A stretch of DNA of 63,885 nt, filler included, from Folioceros fuciformis (taxonomy: Eukaryota), in assembly GCA_049999805.1 (NCBI GenBank). It is 9 parts of 9 records of this genome, joined end to end, with 100 filler letters (N's around TTAATTAATTAA, not from the genome) between each part and the next. Parts side by side here need not be neighbours in the genome. Positions count along the whole stretch, not along the records: positions 53,855 to 62,022 come from JBNGIO010001300.1; 8 more parts are not named here. One strand, 5' to 3'. The stretch's first letter is position 1, and every line of letters begins with the position of its first letter. Shown here piece by piece: positions 1,743-62,122 of this stretch. The notes below the pieces were generated by a model. The model was not told the DNA's origin. It made no database searches and was given only the letters and a program-made list of their open reading frames with translations. The position numbers were made by a program, and so were the translations under genes.

Positions 1743-2411
1743 GGTGATACCATCTTTAGGTAGGTAGAGTAAGAGTAAGTCCATCCGCTTCTGATAGACC
1801 AGGCTAGTGCGAAAGAAGTCGGCGTGCACGGCAACAATCCGAGCGCCTGCCTGCAGGCTACGAGAAAGTGGAATGAGAACACCTTGACCACCACCAACTT
1901 CGGATCCCTCACCCCGTGTCACCTTGGTTCCGAATCCACTACATTTGTAGGTGAGGCCTCCTCTCTGGGCGGTAGGAGACGAGAACGATGGTGTCTCCGT
2001 CGCATTAGGGCAACTACTGTCTCAGACTTCAGAATTCCGTGTGGCTCGACTTTCCTCTCTCATGCGTGCAGTTATTTAGCTCCTTTTCATACACATACCG
2101 GTTTAGGGGGGCCCGGTGTTGCACTACTCGAATTTCTCCGGTTCGATGGATCTTTCATCTTATTTTTCTAAAACAAATAAAAACTTCCCTCGAGTTGGTT
2201 GAACTACCCATATTCATATTCGAAGTCCTATTCCTCCAAGTCTTTGTGCTTGTTTTGGGATAGTATCTTTTTCGATTTTTTAACAAAAAATAATACACAA
2301 CAATCTATAAGGAAGGAAGACACTTATACTTTCATTTCATGTTAGCAAATTTGTTCTAAGAGTTTTTATTTCCTCTAAGGATTTTCTTTTGCACGTCTTG
2401 TAGATAGCTAC

Positions 2412-3219
2412 ATGGAGTTTGCAATATATCTTTGTGCAATCTTACTCCTATCAAATGGTTATTTCATTATGTCTATAGAAGCTCAAGAATCAATCGAGGC
2501 ACCACCACAAGATCTACCAAGTGATACTCCACCAACATCTCCATATGATACACCTCCAGTCTCCCCTTACCAGACCTCACCTGAGATGCCAAATGACATG
2601 CCTCCTCCTACAGGAGGGTCTGAGATGCCATACAACACTCCTCCAGACCCATTCAACATGCCAAGGCAAGTACCAAGAGACACACCTCCTCAAGACACGG
2701 AAGTTCCTCCAGGTGGAAACAGAAGACCAGGTCCACCATACGACAGGCCCCCCTACGACAGGCCTCCTTACGACAGGCCCCCCTACGACAGGCCTCCTTA
2801 CGACAGGTCGCCCTATGACAGGCCTCCATACGATAGAGACCCACAACAACCACCTCAAGGATCGCCACCAATTGGTACATATGTCATGCAGCTGTGTTTC
2901 ACCCCTCAGCTTGATCAATCATGGGAACCCACAATTCGAGCACTTGTTGGCAAAGCCATAGAGAATTATCCCCCAACTTTTTCAAAGAATTGGGCAGCAT
3001 CTGGATTAGGATCAGTTGCAGGGCCCAATGCTAGTCCTTACAATAACATTGCTAGTCTCCATTACGCAGCCACATGCACGTACAGGGAACCGGACATGAC
3101 AGATAGCTTTGCATGCCAACGTTGTCTTATGAACTTAGTTCGAAATTACGTTGAGATGCCAACCAGAGGGGACTGCGTTAGACCATCAGAGACCTCGATT
3201 GCAGTAATAGGGTGCTTAC
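2412..3219 (+). CDS. Secreted Pro-rich protein with C-terminal Gnk2/DUF26-like Cys domain (3'-truncated by linker)
   Basis: Hydrophobic signal peptide MEFAIYLCAILLLSNG, Pro-rich region with PPYDR repeats, then YAATC-x12-CQRC...DC...GCL, resembling the DUF26 C-x8-C-x2-C...C...C pattern. Confidence 0.65.
2733..2837 (+). repeat. 15-bp coding tandem repeat, (P/S)PYDR x7
   Basis: ccyccytacgacagg-like units read directly. Confidence 0.9.
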
Positions 3220-3319
3220 NNNNNNNNNNNNNNNNNNNNNNNNNNNNNNNNNNNNNNNNNNNNTTAATTAATTAANNNNNNNNNNNNNNNNNNNNNNNNN
3301 NNNNNNNNNNNNNNNNNNN
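3220..3319. other. Artificial contig linker
   Basis: N44-TTAATTAATTAA-N44, stops in all six frames. Confidence 0.97.
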
Positions 3320-5402
3320 GAGCAACGTGGTGGCTATCAAGACGCTCAAGAAGCAGCAGGGGCAGGGGAGGCAGGGGTTGCAACAGCGACAGGAACAACA
3401 ACAGCAGCAGCAGCAGCAGCAGCAGCAGGGGCAGAGGGAGCATGAGGGGCCGGCCACCAAGCGAGCCAGGATGGGGATGGCGGGAGGTGGGATGACGGTG
3501 TCGGAGGCGCTGGTGGCCAACGAGATTCTGGTGATGCAGCGTATAGTGGAGGAGGTGTCGCCCAATCCCAACGTGATCCACCTGCTGGACGTGTACGAGG
3601 ACGCAGGGGGGGTGCACCTGGTGCTGGAGCTGTGCTCGGGTGGGGAGCTCTTCGACAGGATCGTGTCGCAGTCGCGCTACTCGGAGCGGGAGGCAGCGGC
3701 CGTGGTGCGCCAGATCGCCAACGGGCTCAGGAGCTTGCACGAGGCGCACATTGTCCACCGGGACCTCAAGCCCGAGAACTGCCTCTTTCTCACCTCGGAC
3801 CCGGACTCCCCCGTGAAAATCATGGACTTTGGGCTGAGCCACATTCAGGAGGTCACAAGCCCCATTGTGGGCATGTTCGGCTCAATCGACTACGTAGCGC
3901 CCGAGTCCTTGCTGCGCAAGCCCGTGCTACCAGCTACCGATATGTGGTCCCTGGGGGTCATCCTTTACATTCTGCTCTGCGGGTATCCGCCCTTCCACGC
4001 GCGCACAAACCGGGAGAAGCAGGAGGCAATTCTTGCGGTAGGTAACTCCTCGTTTTCTCTTTCACCTTCCTTTCTCCCTCCCTCCCTCCCTCCCTCCCTT
4101 GCTAAAAAAAAAAAATTGCCGCTTGGGCTTTTGTCCTTTCCCTTTAGCAACAACAGGATTGCTTGCCTTGTGCGGTTGGTAGAGCCAGCATTGATGTCGG
4201 ACTGGGACTGCGGTCCTCCCCCAATTCTCTGCCTGCTTCATGTCAGGGTCGTTTTGACTTCTCAGATCCTACATGGGCCACGGTATCCCGATCTGCGAAG
4301 GACCTCATCTCCAGGTTGCTGGCGGTGGCTCAGCACCAGAGGCCCACAGCCCAGGAGGTGAGGGCAGCCCAGCCCAGCCCAATTTCCAATTCAATCCACC
4401 AGCATTGCTTTGCGTGACTATGTGTAGTCCCACGGTGGCCATGGCAGCTCCTGCAGCACCCCTGGGTGAGAGGGGAGGAGGCCAATCCGGAGCCGGTGGT
4501 GCCCCTCATATTTCAGCGCTTCCAGAAGTTCAATGCGCGCAGGAAGTTCCGGGCCGCGGTGCAGGCCAGCGTCATGAGCAACAAGCTGGTGGGCTCTGTG
4601 CGAACAAGCAACCTGAGAACCCTGGTAGGCTCCCAGGCTCTCAGCGCGGAGGAGCTGCGCAATCTGCACAAGCATTTCAAGGCCATGTGCGTGAGCAGTC
4701 TCTTCCTTGCTCGTCATTGCCTTTTCCACCTCCTTTCCTTACGTACAACATGTTAGCTTGCTGCGTGCAGATCAGGCAATGGCTCAAGCGTTTCTCTCAA
4801 GGAGTTCGTAGACGTACTAAGGGCCATGAAGAAGGATGCGCTGGTGCCTTTGGCTGCTGACATCTTCAAGCTGTTTGACGTCAATCGGGACGGGTCGGTG
4901 GACATGAGGGAGATCATATGCGGCTTCTCTCCTCTCAAGAAGCCTGAAGGTGACGAGGCCCTGCGGCTATGCTTCCAGGTGGGGAAGGACGTCGCTGTCG
5001 CCGCCCTAGCCATTAGGGGAGACAACTCTCTGGACAACTCATCAACTGAATTGAACTGAACTGTGTCGTCTCGTGTGGCAGATGTACGATACGGATGGAT
5101 CAGGGGCCATTTCCCGAGATGAACTGGCCGCGATGCTCAGGGTATGTTGAACAGATCTCCCTCCTCGGCACATGTGGAATGCGCTGCTCCAGATTCTTGA
5201 CCTCTAGATGCTGTTTTGCCTACAGGCTTTGCCCGAGCTTTATCTACCGCCTGACATAACGGAGCCTGGTAAACTGGACGAGATATTCGACCACATGGAC
5301 GCCGATAGCGATGGTCATGTAAGCTTTGACGAATTCAAAGACGCTATGCAGACCAATCACAAACTCAGAGAGGGAGTCCTCTTTCCACTTGGCCAGCCCT
5401 AG
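3320..5402 (+). CDS. CCaMK: Calcium/calmodulin-dependent protein kinase CCaMK (DMI3), 5'-partial; exons <3320-4037, 4247-4357, 4448-4686, 4771-4978, 5082-5141, 5226-5402
   Basis: CCaMK-specific NEILVMQRIVEEVSPNPNVI, HRDLKPEN, MDFGLS, FGSIDYVAPE, CaM-binding FNARRKFRAA, three EF-hands (DVNRDG, DTDGSG, DADSDG) and LPPDITEPGKLDEIFD. All GT-AG junctions splice in frame. Confidence 0.95.
3396..3428 (+). repeat. CAA/CAG trinucleotide repeat encoding Q11 inside the kinase N-lobe
   Basis: caacaa(cag)9. Confidence 0.95.
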
Positions 5403-11530: not shown

Positions 11531-11630
11531 NNNNNNNNNNNNNNNNNNNNNNNNNNNNNNNNNNNNNNNNNNNNTTAATTAATTAANNNNNNNNNNNNNN
11601 NNNNNNNNNNNNNNNNNNNNNNNNNNNNNN
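11531..11630. other. Artificial contig linker
   Basis: N44-TTAATTAATTAA-N44. Confidence 0.97.
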
Positions 11631-15444: not shown

Positions 15445-15544
15445 NNNNNNNNNNNNNNNNNNNNNNNNNNNNNNNNNNNNNNNNNNNNTTAATTAATTAA
15501 NNNNNNNNNNNNNNNNNNNNNNNNNNNNNNNNNNNNNNNNNNNN
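15445..15544. other. Artificial contig linker
   Basis: N44-TTAATTAATTAA-N44. Confidence 0.97.
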
Positions 15545-20922: not shown

Positions 20923-21022
20923 NNNNNNNNNNNNNNNNNNNNNNNNNNNNNNNNNNNNNNNNNNNNTTAATTAATTAANNNNNNNNNNNNNNNNNNNNNN
21001 NNNNNNNNNNNNNNNNNNNNNN
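20923..21022. other. Artificial contig linker
   Basis: N44-TTAATTAATTAA-N44. Confidence 0.97.
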
Positions 21023-41009: not shown

Positions 41010-41109
41010 NNNNNNNNNNNNNNNNNNNNNNNNNNNNNNNNNNNNNNNNNNNNTTAATTAATTAANNNNNNNNNNNNNNNNNNNNNNNNNNNNNNNNNNN
41101 NNNNNNNNN
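41010..41109. other. Artificial contig linker
   Basis: N44-TTAATTAATTAA-N44. Confidence 0.97.
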
Positions 41110-50821: not shown

Positions 50822-50921
50822 NNNNNNNNNNNNNNNNNNNNNNNNNNNNNNNNNNNNNNNNNNNNTTAATTAATTAANNNNNNNNNNNNNNNNNNNNNNN
50901 NNNNNNNNNNNNNNNNNNNNN
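50822..50921. other. Artificial contig linker
   Basis: N44-TTAATTAATTAA-N44. Confidence 0.97.
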
Positions 50922-53754: not shown

Positions 53755-53854
53755 NNNNNNNNNNNNNNNNNNNNNNNNNNNNNNNNNNNNNNNNNNNNTT
53801 AATTAATTAANNNNNNNNNNNNNNNNNNNNNNNNNNNNNNNNNNNNNNNNNNNN
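53755..53854. other. Artificial contig linker
   Basis: N44-TTAATTAATTAA-N44. Confidence 0.97.
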
Positions 53855-54109
53855 GGAGGAGGAGGGGAAGGAGTGGAAGGAGGAGGAGGAGGAGGAGGAG
53901 AGGAGATTTGGAGTGGGTGGCCCATGTCAGCTGCAAGAGCAGGGATAGGGGGATGTAGCGTGGAGTGGCGTGGGGGTCTCTGTATGGAGCAGGAGATTTG
54001 GTGGAGGAGGCAGCTGCTGCAGGCAACTGGAGTTTCGTAATGGGTTTGGAGGTGATGGAGTTAGGGCTGTAGGGGGGAGAATGCAGAGTAGGAAGGAAGA
54101 GTGGAATGC

Positions 54110-55267
54110 ATGTTCGTGGATAGGGGGGATCTGGGTGGTGGGGGGACATCTGAGGATTTGTTTCAGCCGTTAGCCACACTGGCGTTTGCAGGAAGACCGG
54201 GGCTCATGGGGGAGGGCTTGGCTGTGATGCAAGCTATGCAGCTGCAGCCTTCTCCTCCCTCTGGGCCTCTGGCTGTCCCCACTGGAAGTGGAGATCTTGC
54301 AGGTGTGTCTTCGGGCAGGATGCGGAAGAAGGAGGATCGGATACCGCAATGGGGGTACCATGAGACCAAGGAGTTCATTGCCATCCGAGCCGAGCTTGAG
54401 AAGGACTTCACACAGACTAAGCGTAATAAGACCCTGTGGGAGCTGATTGCTGGCAAGATGAAGGAGAAGGGGTTTCGTCGAAGTGCTGACCAATGCAAGT
54501 GCAAGTGGAAGAATTTGGTGAACAGATACAAGGTTGGGGCTGGGCAGTGTCTGCACTTCGCGTTTGAGTTTTGGCTTTTCTTGGACCTGGCGTTGGGTTG
54601 TGGGGGTATGTTGTGGCTTTTGCTGGCCACCCTGGGTCGCTTGGCTTGGTTGGAGTGATGAGAAGCCTTTCGTTGTCTATGTTTGCAGGGGAAGGAGACA
54701 TCAGAGCCTGATAATGGTAGGCAATGCCCGTTCTATGAAGAGCTTGATGCCATCTTCAAGGAACGTTTGAAGAATTCGGACAGGCTCCTCCTGGAGTCAG
54801 AGTCTGGGGCAAGGCCCAAGAAGAAAGGTAAAAGGTTGAAGCGTAGCCTGGTTGGGGAGAAGTCATCGGACGATGACACCGAGGACGATGATGATGACGA
54901 TGAAGAGAGTGAGGATGAGCGAGTTGTGCGACGCAAGAAGAGGAAAGCCGACAAAGAAAGGCAGCGTGTGACTGCCGAAAAATATCGAGCAAGCAGCATG
55001 CAGGAAGTGCTCGAAGACTTTTTCCAACAGCAGCAAAGGGTGGAGGAGCAGTGGAGGGAATTAGTTGAAAGAAGGGAGCACGAGAGAAGGGCTCGGGAAC
55101 AGGAGTGGAGGGATGTAGTGGGGAAGCTTGAGCAGGAGCGGATTGCAAGAGAGCAGCTCTTCCGAGAGCGTGAGGAGCAGAGACGATTAAAGGAGGAAGC
55201 TCGAGCTGAGAAACGAGATGAACTGTTTGCTGCTCTCGTCACCAAGTTTGTCAATGAGGACCACTAG
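54110..55267 (+). CDS. Trihelix (Myb/SANT-like) transcription factor, GT-1/GT-3 clade; exons 54110-54532, 54689-55267
   Basis: PQWGYHETKEFIAIR..TKRNKTLWELIAGKMKEKGFRRSADQCKCKWKNLVNRYK|GKET..QCPFYEEL, acidic tract, NLS RRKKRK, C-terminal coiled coil. Confidence 0.94.
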
Positions 55268-56482
55268 CAGGAATAGTTGCACCAGCTGCTTTGCTTTTGG
55301 GGTATGGCAAAGTGTGACGGCCAGTCCATGCTCCGGCGGGGCAAGCAGCGTCTGTGGATTCGGTAGTCATTGTTCTGACCGGATCGCTTCTGTGAGTGTC
55401 TGTGTGCAATCTGCACACAGACGCCATACTGTACTGTAGGGGGTACAACTCTGACCTTAGAACAGGAGGCTCATGGCTGCACATGTGTCCGGCCTCCAGC
55501 CAAATTCGGCGAATTTTTCATTTTGTGGGTTCTGGGTAGCTTCTCCGATTTAGCTTTCGCAGGAATTTCACCTGCAGACTTAAAAGCGATGCTGCTCAAG
55601 CTGGAAAAATGCGCTTGTAAAGTACGGGCCGCAAGGATGCTAGGTGTGGAAATTTGGGTGGTCTTCCATCCCTTCTCAAAATTCTGTGATCAAGACAAAC
55701 AAGATGATGTGGTCTCCGTGGATTGTCATCTTGAAGTTTTGTCAAGTCTTAGCTTTTGTCCACAGTCTCCATCTGGACCATTGCCAACCAGATTCTTTTG
55801 GAGCTTCCTATGTCCTCGTAAGGGCATCTACAGCAAAGCGTCCTGTCGAGATAACGTGTATAGTGTGAGTCGAATGTAGTCATTTGGCGAGTCAGGGGAC
55901 GTCACGGAACTGAAAAAGAGTTTCAGGAATTTTCTTACTTTTTTAAAGCCAGGATTCTGATAAGACAAGACCATGACGCTGCCTGCAGGCTGGGCAAATA
56001 CGTTGTTGAATCTTGGACAGAACTCCATGATTTGGGGGCAGGCATGCCTGGCAACCTAACTCTTTTCGAACAAGTCTGCTCGTGGCAGCCGGACTTGTTG
56101 CCTGCTACACAGCATGCTCTTCCCTACGACGAATATCCTGTGAGGACAACTAAGTAGCCAATAACGACGAATGGACCACCAAACTTGAAATAACGACGAC
56201 AGCCTGCCTTGTGGCTCAGCAAACCAATCGCTCATATGTAGCTGCGTCTCCAGTCCTCACTCATGGCTCGAGTGCATCTGCAACATAAACACGTACCCAA
56301 TGTCTGAGGAACACCTCCATGTGTTCAAACCAACATTTAGAGAGACTTATGACGCAAGCCAGCCATACTAAAAAATACCTTGGTATGACGGGAGGATCAA
56401 GCAATCTTCGAATGTGATCCCGGAGTGATGAGAACCGCAGGTCTGCACGAGACCTGCAAAACAGATTTCATGGGCTGCCTGA

Positions 56483-57988
56483 TCATAAGTATGTGCCCAT
56501 AGGGACATTATGAAGGAGGTTGTGAGCTATCACATCCCGCTGTTGTAGTGCGGATACCGGCGAGTTAGTTAGTTCTGCATACATTACATCATCTGCTATG
56601 TTGTAGGTAAGCTCAGGGTCAAATCCTTCGTCATGCTGTTCGCAGACATTGTGGAGGACACAGCAAGCACCAAGCACTGCCGGCAATTCCTGCAATTTGA
56701 CCTCTGACCTCCTCTGGAGAAAGCGCCAGCGTCCCTTAAGCCTTCCAAAAGCCCCCTCAGCAATCTTCTGTGCCTCTTTGATCTTCTCATTGAACGTGTG
56801 ATGAGCCCACGTCATATTTTGGTGCATGTACGGAACCAAGAGCCAGTCCAAAAGTGGATACCCTGCACCACCCACGAGCCACATTCCTTTGAGCGAGCCA
56901 TTATAACCCCGCTGAAACAAGGCCGATTTCTCCAACACCTGTGAGTCAGGCATAGATCCCGGCCAACCTATACATACATCGGTGAAAGCCCCTTTGATGT
57001 CCACCACACCCTGCAATGTAATGGAGTAAGATGTCTTCTGGTTGCGATCAGTGTGACGCTTGTTGTAGTATGCTGCCACATTGATCTTAGGAGCAATGAT
57101 GGGAATATGTGTGGTATACATTGACCCCACTACATTCTGTATCCCACAAACAGCTTCGTAGTCATGCATCACAGCCTGGAGTCGCTCTTTTGAAGGCCAC
57201 TGCACATACTTTGGGAGAAGCACATCATTGATGGCAGCGCAGACTTCAAGGATGAGCTTGTGGCAGGTTGAGATACCGAGACCAAACCTTTTGGACACCA
57301 GCCTCAAGGGCTCACCTGTTGCCAAACGCCAAATGCAAACGGCTACCCGCTGCCTGACCGGAATGGCAGCCCGTAGCATGGTGTCCTCCTTGGCCACCAC
57401 AGACCTAAGTTCCTCGCATATCCTATCAAACGTGCGAGGACTCATCCTAAACGCTCTGTGAAATTCCTCCACAGGAAACCCTGGATGACTGCACCTTTCC
57501 CACCATGCCTGCGAGCGAGTTTTGACCCACAGTCGGCGTTGCACACTAGTCTGAGTAGAAATGGCTGCTCCAACTGCGGCTGCTGCCAACCGGGTCCGCT
57601 TGAACCTGCATCGCTCCAGCTCATCCAAATCCGCATACTCTTCTTGCAGCTGGCTGTAGTACTCCATTAGGTCATTCATTCTTCGTCGGTGTTCCTCCTC
57701 CAGAACCTCCCATTCCAAGCGATAAAGCCTCTCAATCTCCTCCTGCTCCTGCCTCCGCTGCTCCTCGTACAGCAGGAACATGAGCAACACCTTCAAGGTG
57801 GCCTTCTTGCGGCTCCTGGGACGCTTGCGCTGTATCAAACCGTTCATGTCCAGCAAATCCGTGGTCAATTCCTTCCCCTGATCCTCATCCAACTGTCCCT
57901 CCAGCATGGCTGAGAAATCCAGACCGCCTTGCATGACGTCGGAGCCTTGACAGGTCATCACCTCCTGGTCATGCGACACTTGATGCAT
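56483..57988 (-). CDS. Domesticated Harbinger transposase-derived nuclease (HARBI1/ALP1-like, AT5G12010/AT4G29780-type), intronless, DDE triad degenerate
   Basis: RRLWVK.RS..WW, FRMS..TF, QRVAVCIWRLATG..FGLGISTCH, GSMYTTHIPI (for GxIDGTH), GWPGSMPD, VGGAGYPL (for GDxGYP), AFGRLKGRW, ACCVLHNVCE. Confidence 0.93.
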   Translation of the reverse strand: MHQVSHDQEVMTCQGSDVMQGGLDFSAMLEGQLDEDQGKELTTDLLDMNGLIQRKRPRSRKKATLKVLLMFLLYEEQRRQEQEEIERLYRLEWEVLEEEHRRRMNDLMEYYSQLQEEYADLDELERCRFKRTRLAAAAVGAAISTQTSVQRRLWVKTRSQAWWERCSHPGFPVEEFHRAFRMSPRTFDRICEELRSVVAKEDTMLRAAIPVRQRVAVCIWRLATGEPLRLVSKRFGLGISTCHKLILEVCAAINDVLLPKYVQWPSKERLQAVMHDYEAVCGIQNVVGSMYTTHIPIIAPKINVAAYYNKRHTDRNQKTSYSITLQGVVDIKGAFTDVCIGWPGSMPDSQVLEKSALFQRGYNGSLKGMWLVGGAGYPLLDWLLVPYMHQNMTWAHHTFNEKIKEAQKIAEGAFGRLKGRWRFLQRRSEVKLQELPAVLGACCVLHNVCEQHDEGFDPELTYNIADDVMYAELTNSPVSALQQRDVIAHNLLHNVPMGTYL

Positions 57989-58784
57989 TCCCCCCCGTCC
58001 CTCACCAACACAAAAGCAAGTGCCCGTTGTTTAACGAGAACTCTGCCACTAGCTCAAACGGTCGAGTGTCACCACCACTTGGTGCGGAATAGTTTCATCC
58101 ATCTGCAGGCAAGGAAACTACATGCTTTTCATCACCAAACCATCTCGGGCGCACCTCACTCTCACAAGCAACTGAGGGAATGCCTTAATGCCGTGAGACG
58201 GCCCGTCGATCCTTTGCTAGAATCATGTCTCACAGGCTCTGCCCATGCAACCTCGGCTCGGTCGGTCGCCACCTTCTTGTCGGCACGATCTCAGCATTTC
58301 GTTACCTGCATTATGATTCAGGTGTTGAACATGTTTCAACCCTATTTCGGCAGACGACGATTATGAAACCAAGTGTCAAGAATATACAAGAATATTGAAT
58401 GAATATAATTAAATATAGATATTTTCCGCTTTTGGTCGGTTTGGGGTCAAGTTTCGATGCGTTGAAGCCCCAAACAAGGCCACTCCCTTACCATAGTCAT
58501 TGGTCGCGAGTCGTGGCACCAGAAGCCCAAAACGGGGCTCGCTTGTGCCGTCCCTTTTCGTGGCCGTTCTTTAATACATTAATACATAGCCTTCTTTTCG
58601 ACTAAATTTTCCGATGTATGTATAGATCATAAAAATGTGATTATCAATATGGAGTCTTTATAATAAAGACAAGAGATGGAAACTTATCTACTCCTAACAA
58701 AAAGCGGAACCTGGTGAAGAGGTCCACCAAACCTGGTGAGTAACATTAACATCTACAATGGAAATCTAATCTCTGGTCAGCCTT

Positions 58785-59641
58785 CTATGGCTCTCCGGCT
58801 TTCTTCTGACGGCAGTCCCATGCCCAGTGGCCAGCAGCTCCACACCAATTGCAATTTTCGGCCCAGCAAGGAGGGGCAAAGGTTGATTCACCTTTAGGGG
58901 TGAAGTTTGGCCTGCCCTTCTGAGTCTTCCCGGGCTTGGAATGGGTGGACAAAGCCCTGCCTGCTTTGGGCTTGGACCCTCTTGCAGTGTTAAGACGGCT
59001 CTGCTCCTGCTGATACAGAGTGCCTACGATGTCCTCCACTGTCAAGGTGGGAATCGTGCTTAACTTACAGTGGGTAGATACCAACATCAGGTTGGTAACA
59101 AAGTTTTGGTAAGAGGATGGTAAGCTCATCAACAGTTGTGCAGCGGCATCAGTCTCCCACATGGTGGAGCCAAGGGAGGTGAGCTGCCCTCGTAGCTGTC
59201 TGAACTTCGAGATATGAGCAGAGATCGTATCTGTCTCTTCATCCTTAAGGAGTTGAATTCCTGCCTTACACTATACATGGTTAGAACGTTGTTAACATTG
59301 TACGTGATCGATAGCTAGTCCCAGATTACAGAGGCCTTCGTAAGGAACTCCATGCTGAGCACTAGACTTGAATCAAGTCCGCTGATGAGGAGAGCAATTG
59401 CAATCCCATTCAAATAGTCCCATCTCTCAACAACAATGATTGGCAGGGGTGTAGTGGTAGAAGGGTCGGGCTTTGGAAGGGTGCCATCGACGATCTTCCA
59501 AACGCCTCGACCTATCAAGATGGACTTCATGCACACGCGCCACACCGGGAAGTGGTGGCCGTTGAACCGATCTTTTTTCTTCATATGATCAGTGTAGACG
59601 AGGCTTGCACCTGTGAAGGTGGACGAAGTGGTGCTCACCAT
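58785..59641 (-). pseudogene. Copia-type gag (UBN2-like plus CCHC zinc knuckle) with one stop and a frameshift
   Basis: FNGHHFPVWRVCMKSILIGRGVWKIVDG, ASVIWD*L, ISAHISKF, LLMSLPSSYQNF, CNWCGAAGHWAWDC. Confidence 0.88.
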
Positions 59642-60975
59642 AGCTATTGCGAAGTCTAATGATAGTAAGTTAAATTGTTGTATCAAGTGGTCCACAAAGG
59701 AATTGTAGGTTATGGTCATAAACTCAGGCAGAGGGGTGTACAACACATTGGTTCTTCCTTCAATGTTGTTGGACAAGAGTTACGAGGGAACACAATTATT
59801 CAAGGATAGGCTGGCGTTAGTACCCTCCTGGTTCAACAAAGCATCACCAAGGTGCTCAGGACCACTCAATGTCCAACCAGTTAGGAACTTGCAAGCTATC
59901 CACCTCCAATTTCGCTATACGACGAAAGGCGAAAAACTGGGTCCACCAAACACTGAGTTGTGTGCTCGAGCTGATCCCACAAGGTCGAGGCATGATCCGT
60001 GGAGGTTGAAGGTGCTGGTTATCAAACTTTAGATATCGCTTGCGAGTAGGTGAGGCTGGTTCGATCTTCAATGGATCTCTATGCTCCACGAAGTCGCTTG
60101 AATCATACGTCCAACCTGAAGTCCTAGGATGCCCAAGGCCAGATTGATCGTTAGTAGAAAAAATAGAGAGAATATAGGCATATCCTACCGGGGGTGGAAG
60201 ATTCCCAAGAGCAGAGTCCAAGTGAGAAACGGCGCTGAATGGAACCGGTTCGAAATTGCTACCCGAAAAGCCGTTGGGGTGGCCTGAAGAGGTTCACCGC
60301 CGAAACGACAACTTAAGTTGTTGTTTCGCGAGCGGGGCAGCGGTCGCAAAGCAGCGCGCTAGCCTCCGCGCGCACACCGTGCGTTGCTGCGTCGCAGCGT
60401 TGCACCGCAACAGTGCGCTCTTGCTCCAGTGCTTGCAACAAGTTGCGAGCACGATCGGCTGCCCATGCTAGTGCTCCTGGTTGATGCACCTCCCCCTGTT
60501 GTGGGTTAGCTCCAGATATGCCAAATTTCAAACCAAAACTTGATGAGATTTGGTTGTTGTCTTGCAATCTTGCATATCCCCTCAAATCTTCCTCAAATCT
60601 CAACAGATTTTGCTCAAATCTGGCCTCACTAGGAGGAGTCCTAGTAGCAAAAAGCAGATTGTGTAGAAGATCTTGAGAATTTGAAGTGGGAAGAGGTAGG
60701 AGGCTGCGAGATGCTCCGGGGACTAAATGGTCTTCTGACTATATTTGGTTTATATTTTCCGTATTCTAGATCGATAGGTTTCATTTGCAAAGATTCTTTT
60801 TACAATTCAAGCAAAAGAAAACTATCATGATTTGATGCATGATTTCTTTTGCAGAGCTGGCTGAGCTAGCCAAGAAGATCTACGAACAAGCGAGTAAAGT
60901 TATCAAACTTTAGATATCGCTTGTGCAACCTGAACGACATGTTTCTAGCCATGATCAGAAGACCATGTGAGCCGA

Positions 60976-60988
60976 GGCTCTGATACCA
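60976..60988 (-). promoter_or_regulatory. Primer-binding site for initiator tRNA-Met
   Basis: Minus strand reads TGGTATCAGAGCC immediately after the LTR-terminal CA. Confidence 0.92.
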
Positions 60989-61302
60989 TGAGAAAATCCT
61001 AACAATAGGATTGTGTAGCATGCATCTAACCCATGATGCTACGCAAGATATGTTCTTGGTTAATTAGTTAAACAAGAGGTACACAAGGTGTGTTTTAAGG
61101 TGGTGCAAGATGTTCGTTCATGATGAGGCACACCCTTTCGTAGTGACCTAACCCTCTAGACAGTAACTAGATTATAGGTAGGGATACAGACAAATTAACT
61201 ATTCCGTAACATCTATCCTAGAGGATTAAGAACATGTTCACAAATGAAGTCCTCGCTTGGGTGAGTAACATTAATATATACAATGGAAATCTAATCCCCT
61301 CA
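60989..61302 (-). repeat. 5' LTR (~314 bp)
   Basis: Terminal inverted TGAG/CTCA, abuts the PBS, first ~40 bp recur at 58735-58771. Confidence 0.75.
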
Positions 61303-61369
61303 GCTAGAATTAGATCAATCTAAAGAAAAAAAGGAAGTAAGGGCATTCCCTTATGTGTGGTAGCTGATT

Positions 61370-62015
61370 CTTGGCACACACAAGTGCGCGCTAGCAATTA
61401 GCTGGCACAAACTTGTGCACACTATTGGGTTGATTCAAAGTTCGATTCTTGGTGCACATAAGTGCGTGATAGTAATTAGCTAACATAAACTTGTTCGCAT
61501 AATTGGGTTGATTCAAAGTCTTTTAAACATCATAAGAAGAAGAAAAATAGACTAAACAAGTACCTCAAGTACTTTTAGAGCATGATTCTCTGATGAACAA
61601 CATTCCTTGATAGTTTCAACTTGCTTTGCAAAATTTTTGCACACCGTCAAATTGAATACTCAAATGACCACCATTCAACAAGGATTATTACTTCGAAGTA
61701 ACTTTTAATACATCCAACTCTTAGACTGCCTCACACTGCTGTACCCTCTTCGCTACTGCTATATATTGTCTATTGATGTTCTCCAGCATCTACAAGCTCA
61801 AACAACAACTTTTCCAAGTATAAGCTATTTACCTCCTTCTTCTTTCTCTTCCGGATTAGAATTATTGGCCTTTCAATCAATTGTTTGTGGAGGGATTTAA
61901 GGCCACTAGTGTCTTTTATATTATTCATGCACTTGTACATAACTTGTCTTTGCAACATAAAAAGAGAACATTTGCATCAATAACATACAATGATAGGTAT
62001 TTGATCAATATCACA
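61370..62015. repeat. Dispersed repeat homologous to 20560-20885, with internal ~78-bp tandem duplication (about 61366-61519)
   Basis: Direct sequence comparison by eye. Confidence 0.7.
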
Positions 62016-62022
62016 AGAGATC

Positions 62023-62122
62023 NNNNNNNNNNNNNNNNNNNNNNNNNNNNNNNNNNNNNNNNNNNNTTAATTAATTAANNNNNNNNNNNNNNNNNNNNNN
62101 NNNNNNNNNNNNNNNNNNNNNN
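62023..62122. other. Artificial contig linker
   Basis: N44-TTAATTAATTAA-N44. Confidence 0.97.

Follow-up and report, generated by a model that had tools for sequence, protein, structure and literature searches.

A GT-3-type trihelix gene and a catalytically dead Harbinger-derived nuclease gene as tail-to-tail neighbours in Folioceros fuciformis

Background

Do a trihelix gene and a Harbinger-derived nuclease gene that lie tail to tail in Folioceros fuciformis descend from the two genes of one transposon, or are they neighbours of separate origin? ALP1, HDP1 and HHP1, the three plant nuclease domesticates studied so far, are each reported to act together with a Myb-like protein as part of a chromatin complex. 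The clade to which the nuclease studied here belongs is the best conserved among the plant Harbinger domesticates and, as the preliminary description of this DNA had stated for a partner, the literature searched offered neither a partner nor a function for it. A neighbour that is conserved and belongs to the fitting protein class makes an inexpensive, testable partner candidate. Were the link between the two genes to hold, the biology of GT factors, with their light and stress responses, would be joined to transposon domestication; were it to fail, the locus would tell us that gene neighbours in a compact genome can look suggestive and stay together within a lineage without meaning.

Results and discussion

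Two complete convergent genes on one contig

The window, by which we mean the whole stretch of DNA analysed (63,885 nt), is composed of nine contigs spaced by N44-TTAATTAATTAA-N44 linkers. One of these contigs carries both genes, which are complete and converge with their stop codons 1215 bp apart (Table 1); this confirms the earlier account of an intact trihelix gene on the plus strand and an intact HARBI1/ALP1-like gene on the minus strand separated by about 1.2 kb. Since ordinary genes are found every few kb on the remaining contigs, a gap of this size is normal here. Each of the two genes is single-copy within the window. A start of the trihelix gene at position 54110 had been proposed, and this is indeed the first in-frame ATG, but the homologues start at the Met of 54206, which was adopted. 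A copia gag fragment adjoins the nuclease gene.

Table 1. Positions of the two genes and their parts in the window
Feature	Position	Strand	Remarks
Contig with both genes	53855..62022	.	Bounded by N44-TTAATTAATTAA-N44 linkers; 8.2 kb
Trihelix exon 1	54206..54532	+	Myb_DNA-bind_4 domain inside; start Met set by homologues
Trihelix intron	54533..54688	+	156 nt, GT..AG; a 1592-nt contig from run X3 skips it exactly; junction fits homologue consensus
Trihelix exon 2 and stop	54689..55267	+	Fourth helix, acidic linker, long C-terminal helix; coding to 55264, stop 55265-55267
Trihelix 3' untranslated region	55268..55609	+	Up to the limit of the X3 contig
Nuclease 3' untranslated region and stop codon	55938..56485	-	Run X3; includes a 101-nt spliced intron, 56278-56378, CT..AC on the + strand
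Nuclease-derived gene	56486..57988	-	Single exon, 501 aa, DDE_Tnp_4 fold; Y291 and G374 replace both catalytic Asp
Nuclease 5' untranslated region	57989..58300	-	Up to the limit of the X3 contig

Run X3, which comes from an independent study and which we presume, as a guess, to be RNA, yielded one spliced contig for each gene, with a canonical intron removed from each; the contig of the nuclease gene is colinear with the window over 56379-58300, and none of the X3 contigs joins the two genes. Spliced contigs were taken as signs of transcripts and not as a measure of expression. If X3 is indeed RNA, the genes give rise to two separate spliced mRNAs that converge, with about 330 nt between their assembled ends.

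A 7389-nt DNA contig of another organism (D) covers both genes; over 4264 nt it shows 296 differences and 94 gaps. Runs of two further organisms (B and C) tile the trihelix-nuclease region. In all, the junction is covered by independent runs of four organisms, one of them with a single contig. We concluded that the adjacency of the two genes is real and recurs in close relatives. The shortness of the contig (8.2 kb) and the copia gag fragment beside the nuclease gene might raise the suspicion of an assembly chimera, or of an active or recently active Harbinger element. Either is extremely improbable in view of the four organisms' runs that cross the junction, the single copy of each gene in the window and, as described below, a dead catalytic triad, a gene tree congruent with plant phylogeny and a lack of terminal inverted repeats.

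The trihelix gene is of the GT-3 type

The GT-1 clade of trihelix factors is defined by a motif of a fourth helix and a C-terminal helix, and GT-3a dimerises with itself and with GT-3b through its C-terminal helix region. The preliminary description had placed the window gene in the GT-1 clade; this proved correct, and the gene can be assigned specifically to the GT-3 type. Its exon 1 matches Pfam Myb_DNA-bind_4 (E 6.9e-19), and a profile built from its relatives finds 2EBI, the solved domain of GT-1 (E 3.3e-19). The three spaced Trp of the clade are present and invariant in the alignment (W43, W72 and W95), a fourth amphipathic helix and a long C-terminal helix follow, and the best named relatives among the matches listed are 'GT-3b' proteins. 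In the structural model of exon 2, residues 75-191 are predicted to form one long helix compatible with a coiled coil, which fits the C-terminal coiled coil claimed before. The protein shares with GT-3a and GT-3b the trihelix domain, the fourth helix, the acidic linker and the long C-terminal helix, together with the profile match to the solved GT-1 domain; no difference from them was found at the protein level, and only the neighbour of the window gene is unusual.

GT-3-like proteins of the same architecture are present in Netrium and Mesotaenium. In a partial list of exon 1 differences between relatives, 12 of the 14 fall at third codon positions. Judged from its family, the window protein probably binds DNA through its N-terminal domain and would pair with itself or with a paralogue through its C-terminal helix of about 115 residues.

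The nuclease has lost both catalytic Asp residues

The nuclease gene is one open frame with a DDE_Tnp_4 match of E 2.6e-33. The protein was aligned by MAFFT with 81 distant relatives (31-44% identity). The column of its Y291 holds D in 65 of these relatives and that of its G374 holds D in 69; the third catalytic residue, E411, is E in 66 of them and is retained in the window, whereas most members of the clade have K or R. The claimed loss of two catalytic Asp is borne out, whereas an active PIF/Harbinger element would have an intact DDE triad. The loss is common to the whole clade: the bryophyte, fern and gymnosperm relatives likewise carry Y and G/S at the two positions, and the orthologues of Chara braunii and Closterium are already without the triad. 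By its DDE_Tnp_4 match and this clade-wide loss, the gene is a dead domesticated Harbinger nuclease, as had been proposed. A basic stretch near residues 54-62 is a candidate for the N-terminal nuclear localisation signal proposed before, and one long helix, compatible with the coiled coil described earlier, is predicted for residues 58-140.

The clade spans land plants at 56-83% identity, and its members among the matches listed are automatically named ALP1-like or HARBI1 at NCBI. Its gene tree tracks plant phylogeny: angiosperms, ferns, mosses and liverworts each form a clade, and the lycophytes are represented by one sequence; the gymnosperms fall between the angiosperms and the rest without a resolved position, and the window nuclease and Logan protein P0004 form a branch of their own. 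The DDE_Tnp_4 fold, the triad loss common to orthologues, the agreement of gene tree and species tree and a coding sequence that is intronless, like those of At5g12010 and At4g29780, would place the window gene in the At5g12010/At4g29780-type clade. This assignment is drawn from gene structure and from the exclusion of ALP1/At3g55350; no Arabidopsis protein was among the 120 and 150 matches listed or in the 10 clusters examined. At5g12010/At4g29780 stand, among six Arabidopsis Harbinger-nuclease clades, without a described partner. Membership of the ALP1/At3g55350 (HHP1) clade was rejected: the ALP1 lineage retains DDE outside the angiosperms and possesses a 5' intron, whereas the coding sequence of the window gene is uninterrupted, and Y and G/S stand at the two Asp positions both in the window gene and in its relatives among bryophytes, ferns and gymnosperms.

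In our reading, the nuclease is a relative of the Harbinger transposase that lost its catalytic Asp before land plants arose and changed very little since. By analogy with ALP1, HDP1 and HHP1, its most likely role would be that of an adaptor without catalytic activity in a complex of nuclear proteins, exerted through the long helix at its N terminus and a helix-turn-helix region.

Absence of terminal inverted repeats and of fused forms among the nearest relatives

The preliminary description had raised the possibility of a whole PIF/Harbinger element co-domesticated in place. No terminal inverted repeats flank the two genes; the only inverted matches around the pair are 14-24 nt long, 75-93% complementary and mostly GGAGG-rich low-complexity sequence, which speaks against a whole element in place. 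Fused forms were likewise absent among the nearest relatives: PF13837 occurs in none of the best 120 nuclease matches and PF13359 in none of the best 120 trihelix matches. Among 155 proteins (150 listed representatives and 5 cluster members), P0307 is the sole one matched by the trihelix HMM. The N-terminal extensions of the Chara and Closterium orthologues (about 320-400 aa) gave no Pfam domain at E <= 0.01 and no match to the trihelix HMM.

The adjacency was seen only in the lineage of the window

A metagenome scan with the single nuclease protein gave no relative. With the nuclease alignment A1, 80 loci with nuclease orthologues were collected (910,066 bp), 13 of them moss-like, 66 angiosperm-like and 1 gymnosperm-like. 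A flank of at least 3 kb is available downstream of the nuclease in 43 loci (7 moss-like, 36 angiosperm-like and no gymnosperm-like) and upstream in 44. Neither tblastn of exon 1 nor the trihelix HMM detected a trihelix domain at E <= 10 in any of the 80 loci. Among the matches listed, the two orthologues are on different contigs in Calypogeia (a liverwort), Physcomitrium and Selaginella, on contigs of different size also in Nelumbo, Tetracentron, Tasmannia and Bauhinia, and carry locus tags more than 1900 apart in Riccia fluitans, Protea and Dioscorea. The ancient, conserved linkage that had been suggested is thus not supported. On the other side, the two genes of Magnolia (M. sinica) and both paralogue pairs of Aristolochia (A. 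californica) do share a chromosome-length record, whatever their spacing along it.

The top nuclease match, P0004 (83% identity), and the top exon 1 match, P0405 (91% identity), are both recorded with a longest contig of 6239 bp. This suggests that they share that contig, and a more distant relative thus probably carries the two genes side by side as well. We concluded that the adjacency originated in the lineage of the window, or at any rate has been kept in no other, and that it persists there at two depths.

These results are best explained by two ancient host genes of independent origin that lie side by side in a single bryophyte-grade lineage with compact genomes, and not by a preserved transposon. 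We favour this reading and consider it rather probable; the adjacency would then need no functional coupling. Chance adjacency had been said beforehand to be indicated by orthologues unlinked in all other genomes together with an absence of interaction and co-expression. Only the first half of this is borne out, for the metagenome loci and most of the named species compared.

Predicted binding of the two proteins

The complex prediction proposed earlier as a check was run and gave an ipSAE of 0.41 in three runs, against 0.00 for the best of 3 controls. The pLDDT of the partner is at least 56, and the runs agree in at least 46% of contacts. Since no solved structure related to the nuclease was found, this pass does not reproduce a structure learned by the model. 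The controls were unrelated proteins and not other long helices, which leaves room for generic helix pairing. In the calibration of the method, 5 of 78 solved complexes scored 0.60 or under, and so did all 4 passing mismatches out of 180; by these benchmark counts, a prediction at this level is wrong more often than it is right unless a strong prior backs it. The verdict of the method was weak support for binding between the trihelix protein and the nuclease.

The two proteins might be functional partners without a common element origin, for example in a heteromeric coiled coil, with their adjacency secondary or coincidental. The weak pass of the prediction and the long helices modelled in both proteins point in this direction, and At4g29780, At5g12010 and GT-3b are all reported to be stress-induced in Arabidopsis. 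A weak pass without a strong prior counts for little by the benchmark, and no co-mention or interaction appeared in the literature searched: within its main texts, nothing ties HARBI1 or the nuclease clade to GT-3, and of 11 papers in which at least two of the four Arabidopsis gene codes occur, none pairs At5g12010 or At4g29780 with a GT-3 gene. The dimerisation of GT-3a with itself and GT-3b through the same region already accounts for the helix of the trihelix protein. We regard such a partnership as improbable, more so than the common origin considered next.

Origin of the pair and comparison with known systems

In Anopheles (APLG-APM) and Lepidoptera (LPLG2-LPM2), a domesticated transposase gene is reported to adjoin a Myb/MADF gene, as here, with neither terminal inverted repeats nor target-site duplications, and the two are read as genes of one insertion. 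The window pair might similarly go back to a single insertion of a Harbinger element in an early streptophyte, with the tail-to-tail order kept only in this slowly rearranging lineage. GT-3-type proteins would then be the missing Myb-like partner, and the C-terminal helix of the trihelix protein would bind the N-terminal helix of the nuclease and bring the nuclease to DNA. The adjacency at two depths in the window's lineage speaks for such a history, and both clades date back to streptophyte algae. With about 29 trihelix genes in a genome (PMC4195496 counts 319 over 11 species) and an assumed 20-25 thousand genes, a trihelix neighbour by chance would be expected at about 0.2% per gene. The models also predict one long helix in each protein, at matching ends, to which the ipSAE of the complex prediction adds a little.

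The insect pairs, however, are reported to be adjacent across all or many species of their clades, whereas the window pair fails in 79 moss-like and angiosperm-like loci. Adjacency across the clade that has both genes, as expected of a co-domesticated pair, was seen in 0 of the 80 loci, and in the named liverworts, moss and lycophyte the genes are unlinked or far apart. As the domestication predates the Chara split, the linkage would have had to persist in a single lineage over several hundred million years. The lack of inverted repeats and of fused forms, the choice of controls in the prediction and the silence of the main-text literature on a pairing with GT-3 weigh against it as well. We thus consider it unlikely that the GT-3-type trihelix and the At5g12010/At4g29780-type nuclease are two halves of one Harbinger element, still acting as a DNA-targeting pair through their long terminal helices and preserved here in their original order. 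A shared transposon origin is possible and is offered as an open lead, not as a result. Such an origin, if true, would trace a classical 'plant-specific' clade of transcription factors to a transposon and supply the partner of the most conserved Harbinger domesticate of plants.

Among plant systems, HDP1/HDP2 (At1g72270/At4g31270) and ALP1/ALP2 resemble the window pair in combining a dead Harbinger nuclease with a Myb/SANT/trihelix-type protein. In both cases the proteins interact and the genes are not adjacent, ALP2 being reported to have no nuclease gene beside it; the window pair, in contrast, is adjacent and a candidate for interaction. HDP2, which is Harbinger-derived, is itself filed in the trihelix family, a point in favour of a common origin here, although it belongs to the SH4 clade and the window trihelix to the GT-1 clade (GT-3 type). 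ALP2, HDP2, NAIF1 and the Ping Myb protein bind their nuclease via their C-terminal part, which fits the layout of the window trihelix.

Structure and transcription of the convergent gene pair

The window consists of nine contigs joined through eight linkers; it represents more than one molecule, and gene neighbourhood across a linker means nothing. The trihelix gene and the Harbinger-derived nuclease gene are located on the same contig, and their stop codons are separated by 1215 bp. The preliminary description of a convergent trihelix (+) and nuclease (-) pair with stop codons about 1.2 kb apart was thus correct. The trihelix gene was also described as intact, which it is, but the start assigned to it, 54110, is merely the first in-frame ATG; the homologues begin at the Met of 54206.

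Coordinates of the linkers and of the features on the contig carrying both genes
Feature	Position	Strand	Remarks
Linkers	3220-3319, 11531-11630, 15445-15544, 20923-21022, 41010-41109, 50822-50921, 53755-53854, 62023-62122		N44-TTAATTAATTAA-N44
Contig with both genes	53855-62022		8168 bp; whole finding inside
Trihelix exon 1	54206-54532	+	trihelix domain, Pfam Myb_DNA-bind_4, E 6.9e-19
Trihelix intron	54533-54688	+	156 nt, GT..AG
Trihelix exon 2	54689-55264	+	short helix, acidic stretch, long helix
Trihelix stop codon	55265-55267	+	
Nuclease gene	57988-56486	-	single open frame, 501 aa; DDE_Tnp_4, E 2.6e-33

An independent sequencing run, X3, which comes from another study under the same organism label and whose RNA status is a guess, contains one contig for each gene. 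The first (1592 nt) covers 53900-54530 and 54687-55609, skipping exactly the predicted trihelix intron. The second (2262 nt) covers 55938-56277 and 56379-58300, and the 101 nt skipped (56278-56378), with CT..AC ends, form a canonical minus-strand intron in the 3' untranslated region of the nuclease gene, about 100 nt past its stop codon. Presuming X3 to be RNA, we read these contigs as two convergent spliced mRNAs with assembled ends about 330 nt apart; they are signs of transcripts, expression levels being beyond what contigs can give. Among the differences from relatives listed for trihelix exon 1, 12 of 14 are at third codon positions, a bias that fits purifying selection.

The trihelix gene

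Among the matches listed, the closest named relatives of the trihelix gene are 'GT-3b' proteins. The published classification assigns GT-3a and GT-3b to the GT-1 clade and HDP2 (At4g31270) to SH4. A profile of the relatives of the trihelix gene matches the solved GT-1 domain 2EBI (E 3.3e-19), and the Zygnematophyceae Netrium and Mesotaenium have proteins of the same architecture. In the model, one helix takes up the C-terminal 117 residues, some 90 of which have a pLDDT above 90. Two liverwort protein models, P0124 (Riccia) and P0125 (Calypogeia), share an insert of 29 residues whose position coincides with that of the conserved trihelix intron (alignment A2, columns 214-242); it is probably an in-frame intron that the annotation failed to remove.

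The nuclease and its lost catalytic triad

A protein search yielded 1350 relatives of the nuclease at E <= 0.001, the best 120 of which are land-plant proteins, from liverworts to eudicots, with 56-83% identity, mostly named automatically as ALP1-like or HARBI1. A tree of 34 of these best 120, built by a quick method (LG+G4), follows plant phylogeny, with angiosperm, fern, moss and liverwort clades and one lycophyte row; the gymnosperms lie between the angiosperms and the rest without clear placement. The window nuclease groups only with the Logan protein P0004 (83-84% identity), as a branch of its own that adjoins the liverworts with weak support (SH-aLRT 81). This would place it in a bryophyte-grade lineage absent from the named matches, possibly a hornwort.

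The proposed loss of two catalytic Asp residues was confirmed in an alignment with 81 distant representatives, which are 31-44% identical to the window nuclease: the columns of Y291 and G374 are D in 65 and 69 of them, respectively, while that of E411 is E in 66, as in the window. Inside the nuclease clade, the first position is Y and the second G or S in all members; at the third, only the window and P0004 deviate from K or R. Because the orthologs of Chara braunii and Closterium (52% and 41% identity, respectively), with Y, no second D and K, already lack the triad, catalytic activity was lost before land plants arose. In the nuclease model, residues 58-140 form a single helix, some 80 residues long (pLDDT by block 74-88 between residues 61 and 120), which is followed by helical bundles and RNase-H-like core strands. 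No related solved structure was found by sequence search.

Some relatives have unusual architectures. The proteins of Chara braunii (P0252, 858 aa) and Closterium (P0267, 779 aa) have N-terminal extensions of about 320-400 aa, without Pfam domains at E <= 0.01. P0255 (687 aa) and P0264 (669 aa) share about 51% identity with the nuclease; in both, a full protein kinase domain precedes DDE_Tnp_4, and they may be real fusions or merged models of neighbouring genes. The distant relative P0307 (1125 aa, 39% identity) contains KRAB, Myb_DNA-bind_4, HTH_Tnp_4 and DDE_Tnp_4; it is a fused Harbinger Myb and transposase, whose Myb part belongs to the Pfam family of plant trihelix domains.

Arabidopsis Harbinger nucleases form six clades (HDP1, ALP1, At3g55350, At4g29780, At5g12010 and At3g19120). 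In the ALP1/At3g55350 lineage, a single intron lies close to the 5' end and DDE is retained in all land plants other than angiosperms, whereas the window nuclease has neither an intron in its coding sequence nor DDE; on both grounds it was ruled out as ALP1 or HHP1. It is intronless like At4g29780 and At5g12010, which have no known function or partner, and we infer from gene structure and from the exclusion of ALP1 that it is a putative member of this type.

Co-domestication of plant Harbinger pairs (HDP1/HDP2, ALP1/ALP2, HHP1/SANT1-4) and of adjacent pairs in insects has been published. In literature main texts, we found no report that names a partner for this nuclease clade or connects it with GT-3 factors, nor either nuclease gene code (At4g29780, At5g12010) combined with a GT-3 gene code; the Harbinger main texts found to mention At4g29780 merely list it.

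Linkage of the two genes within and outside the lineage

A 7389-nt DNA contig of a close relative (organism D) spans 53900-58163 with both genes (296 differences, 94 gaps), and two others (B and C) tile the region. The best match of the nuclease, P0004 (83% identity), and that of trihelix exon 1, the Logan protein P0405 (91% identity, query coverage 99%), each have 6239 bp recorded as the size of their longest contig; the equal sizes suggest that a more distant relative carries the two genes on one contig. In the tree, 0.26 changes per column separate the window from P0004, a distance similar to that between the two Riccia species (0.32). The linkage is therefore old inside the window's own lineage; none was seen in the other lineages sampled.

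JGI metagenome contigs were scanned with the nuclease alignment, giving 89 relatives, of which 80 loci were kept (13 moss-like, 66 angiosperm-like, 1 gymnosperm-like; 910,066 bp in total), in 43 of which the downstream flank of the nuclease measures 3 kb or more, as does the upstream flank in 44. In tblastn searches, none of the 80 matched trihelix exon 1, with a threshold as loose as E <= 10, or exon 2, at E <= 1e-3, and none matched a trihelix HMM in six frames at E <= 10; the same HMM recovers both window exons. For named genomes, placement was judged from reported record sizes and locus tags. The orthologs are on different contigs in Calypogeia, Physcomitrium, Selaginella, Nelumbo, Tetracentron, Tasmannia and Bauhinia, and on the same chromosome with locus tags about 2000-4400 apart in Riccia fluitans, Protea and Dioscorea; Magnolia sinica and both paralogue pairs of Aristolochia californica have equal-sized chromosome records for the two. 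Conserved microsynteny, to which the preliminary description had looked, was thus not observed. Same-chromosome placement (Magnolia, Aristolochia, Riccia fluitans, Protea, Dioscorea) looks commoner than expected.

That the two are independent neighbouring genes is, in our judgement, the probable reading. A co-domesticated Harbinger pair with retained linkage seems unlikely, although the partner class and gene layout match known pairs, the adjacency is not recent and the chance of a trihelix neighbour is low, roughly 0.2% per gene with 20-25 thousand genes assumed (the abstract of PMC4195496 gives about 29 trihelix genes per genome). This rarity is tempered, however, since such coincidences are expected when very many windows are scanned, and with a gene every few kb, as on the other window contigs, genes that have become neighbours can stay so in the absence of selection. 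Against retained linkage are also the failure of microsynteny in every sampled lineage beyond the window's own, a nuclease domestication older than the split from Chara, and the absence of transposon marks; no terminal inverted repeats were found around the pair, and no fused nuclease-trihelix proteins among the best 120 matches of either gene.

Predicted complex

The whole nuclease and trihelix exon 2, as encoded by the window, were modelled together without alignments. The ipSAE was 0.41 in three runs, against 0.00 for the best of 3 controls, with partner pLDDT of at least 56 and contact agreement between runs of at least 46%; this weak pass, graded 'weak support', speaks for the co-domesticated pair. 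In the benchmark, 51 of the 78 solved complexes cleared the pass mark, as did 2 of 108 mismatched pairs; scores of 0.60 or under were those of only 5 of the 78 and of all 4 passing mismatches of 180, so that without a strong prior a pass at this score is more often wrong than right. Generic helix pairing may explain the score, because both partners have one long helix and the controls were unrelated proteins rather than long helices. That the proteins work together as partners of separate origin, their adjacency not deriving from a shared element, we consider improbable.

Other elements on the contig

Just upstream of the nuclease gene lies a copia-type gag fragment (Retrotran_gag_2, DUF4219; 58785-59779, minus strand) in two broken frames. 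Around it, a 37-nt direct repeat with 95% identity occurs at 58735-58771 and 61260-61296, 2.5 kb apart. Close to the contig end, at 61366-61519, a 76-nt unit is present twice in tandem with 83% identity.
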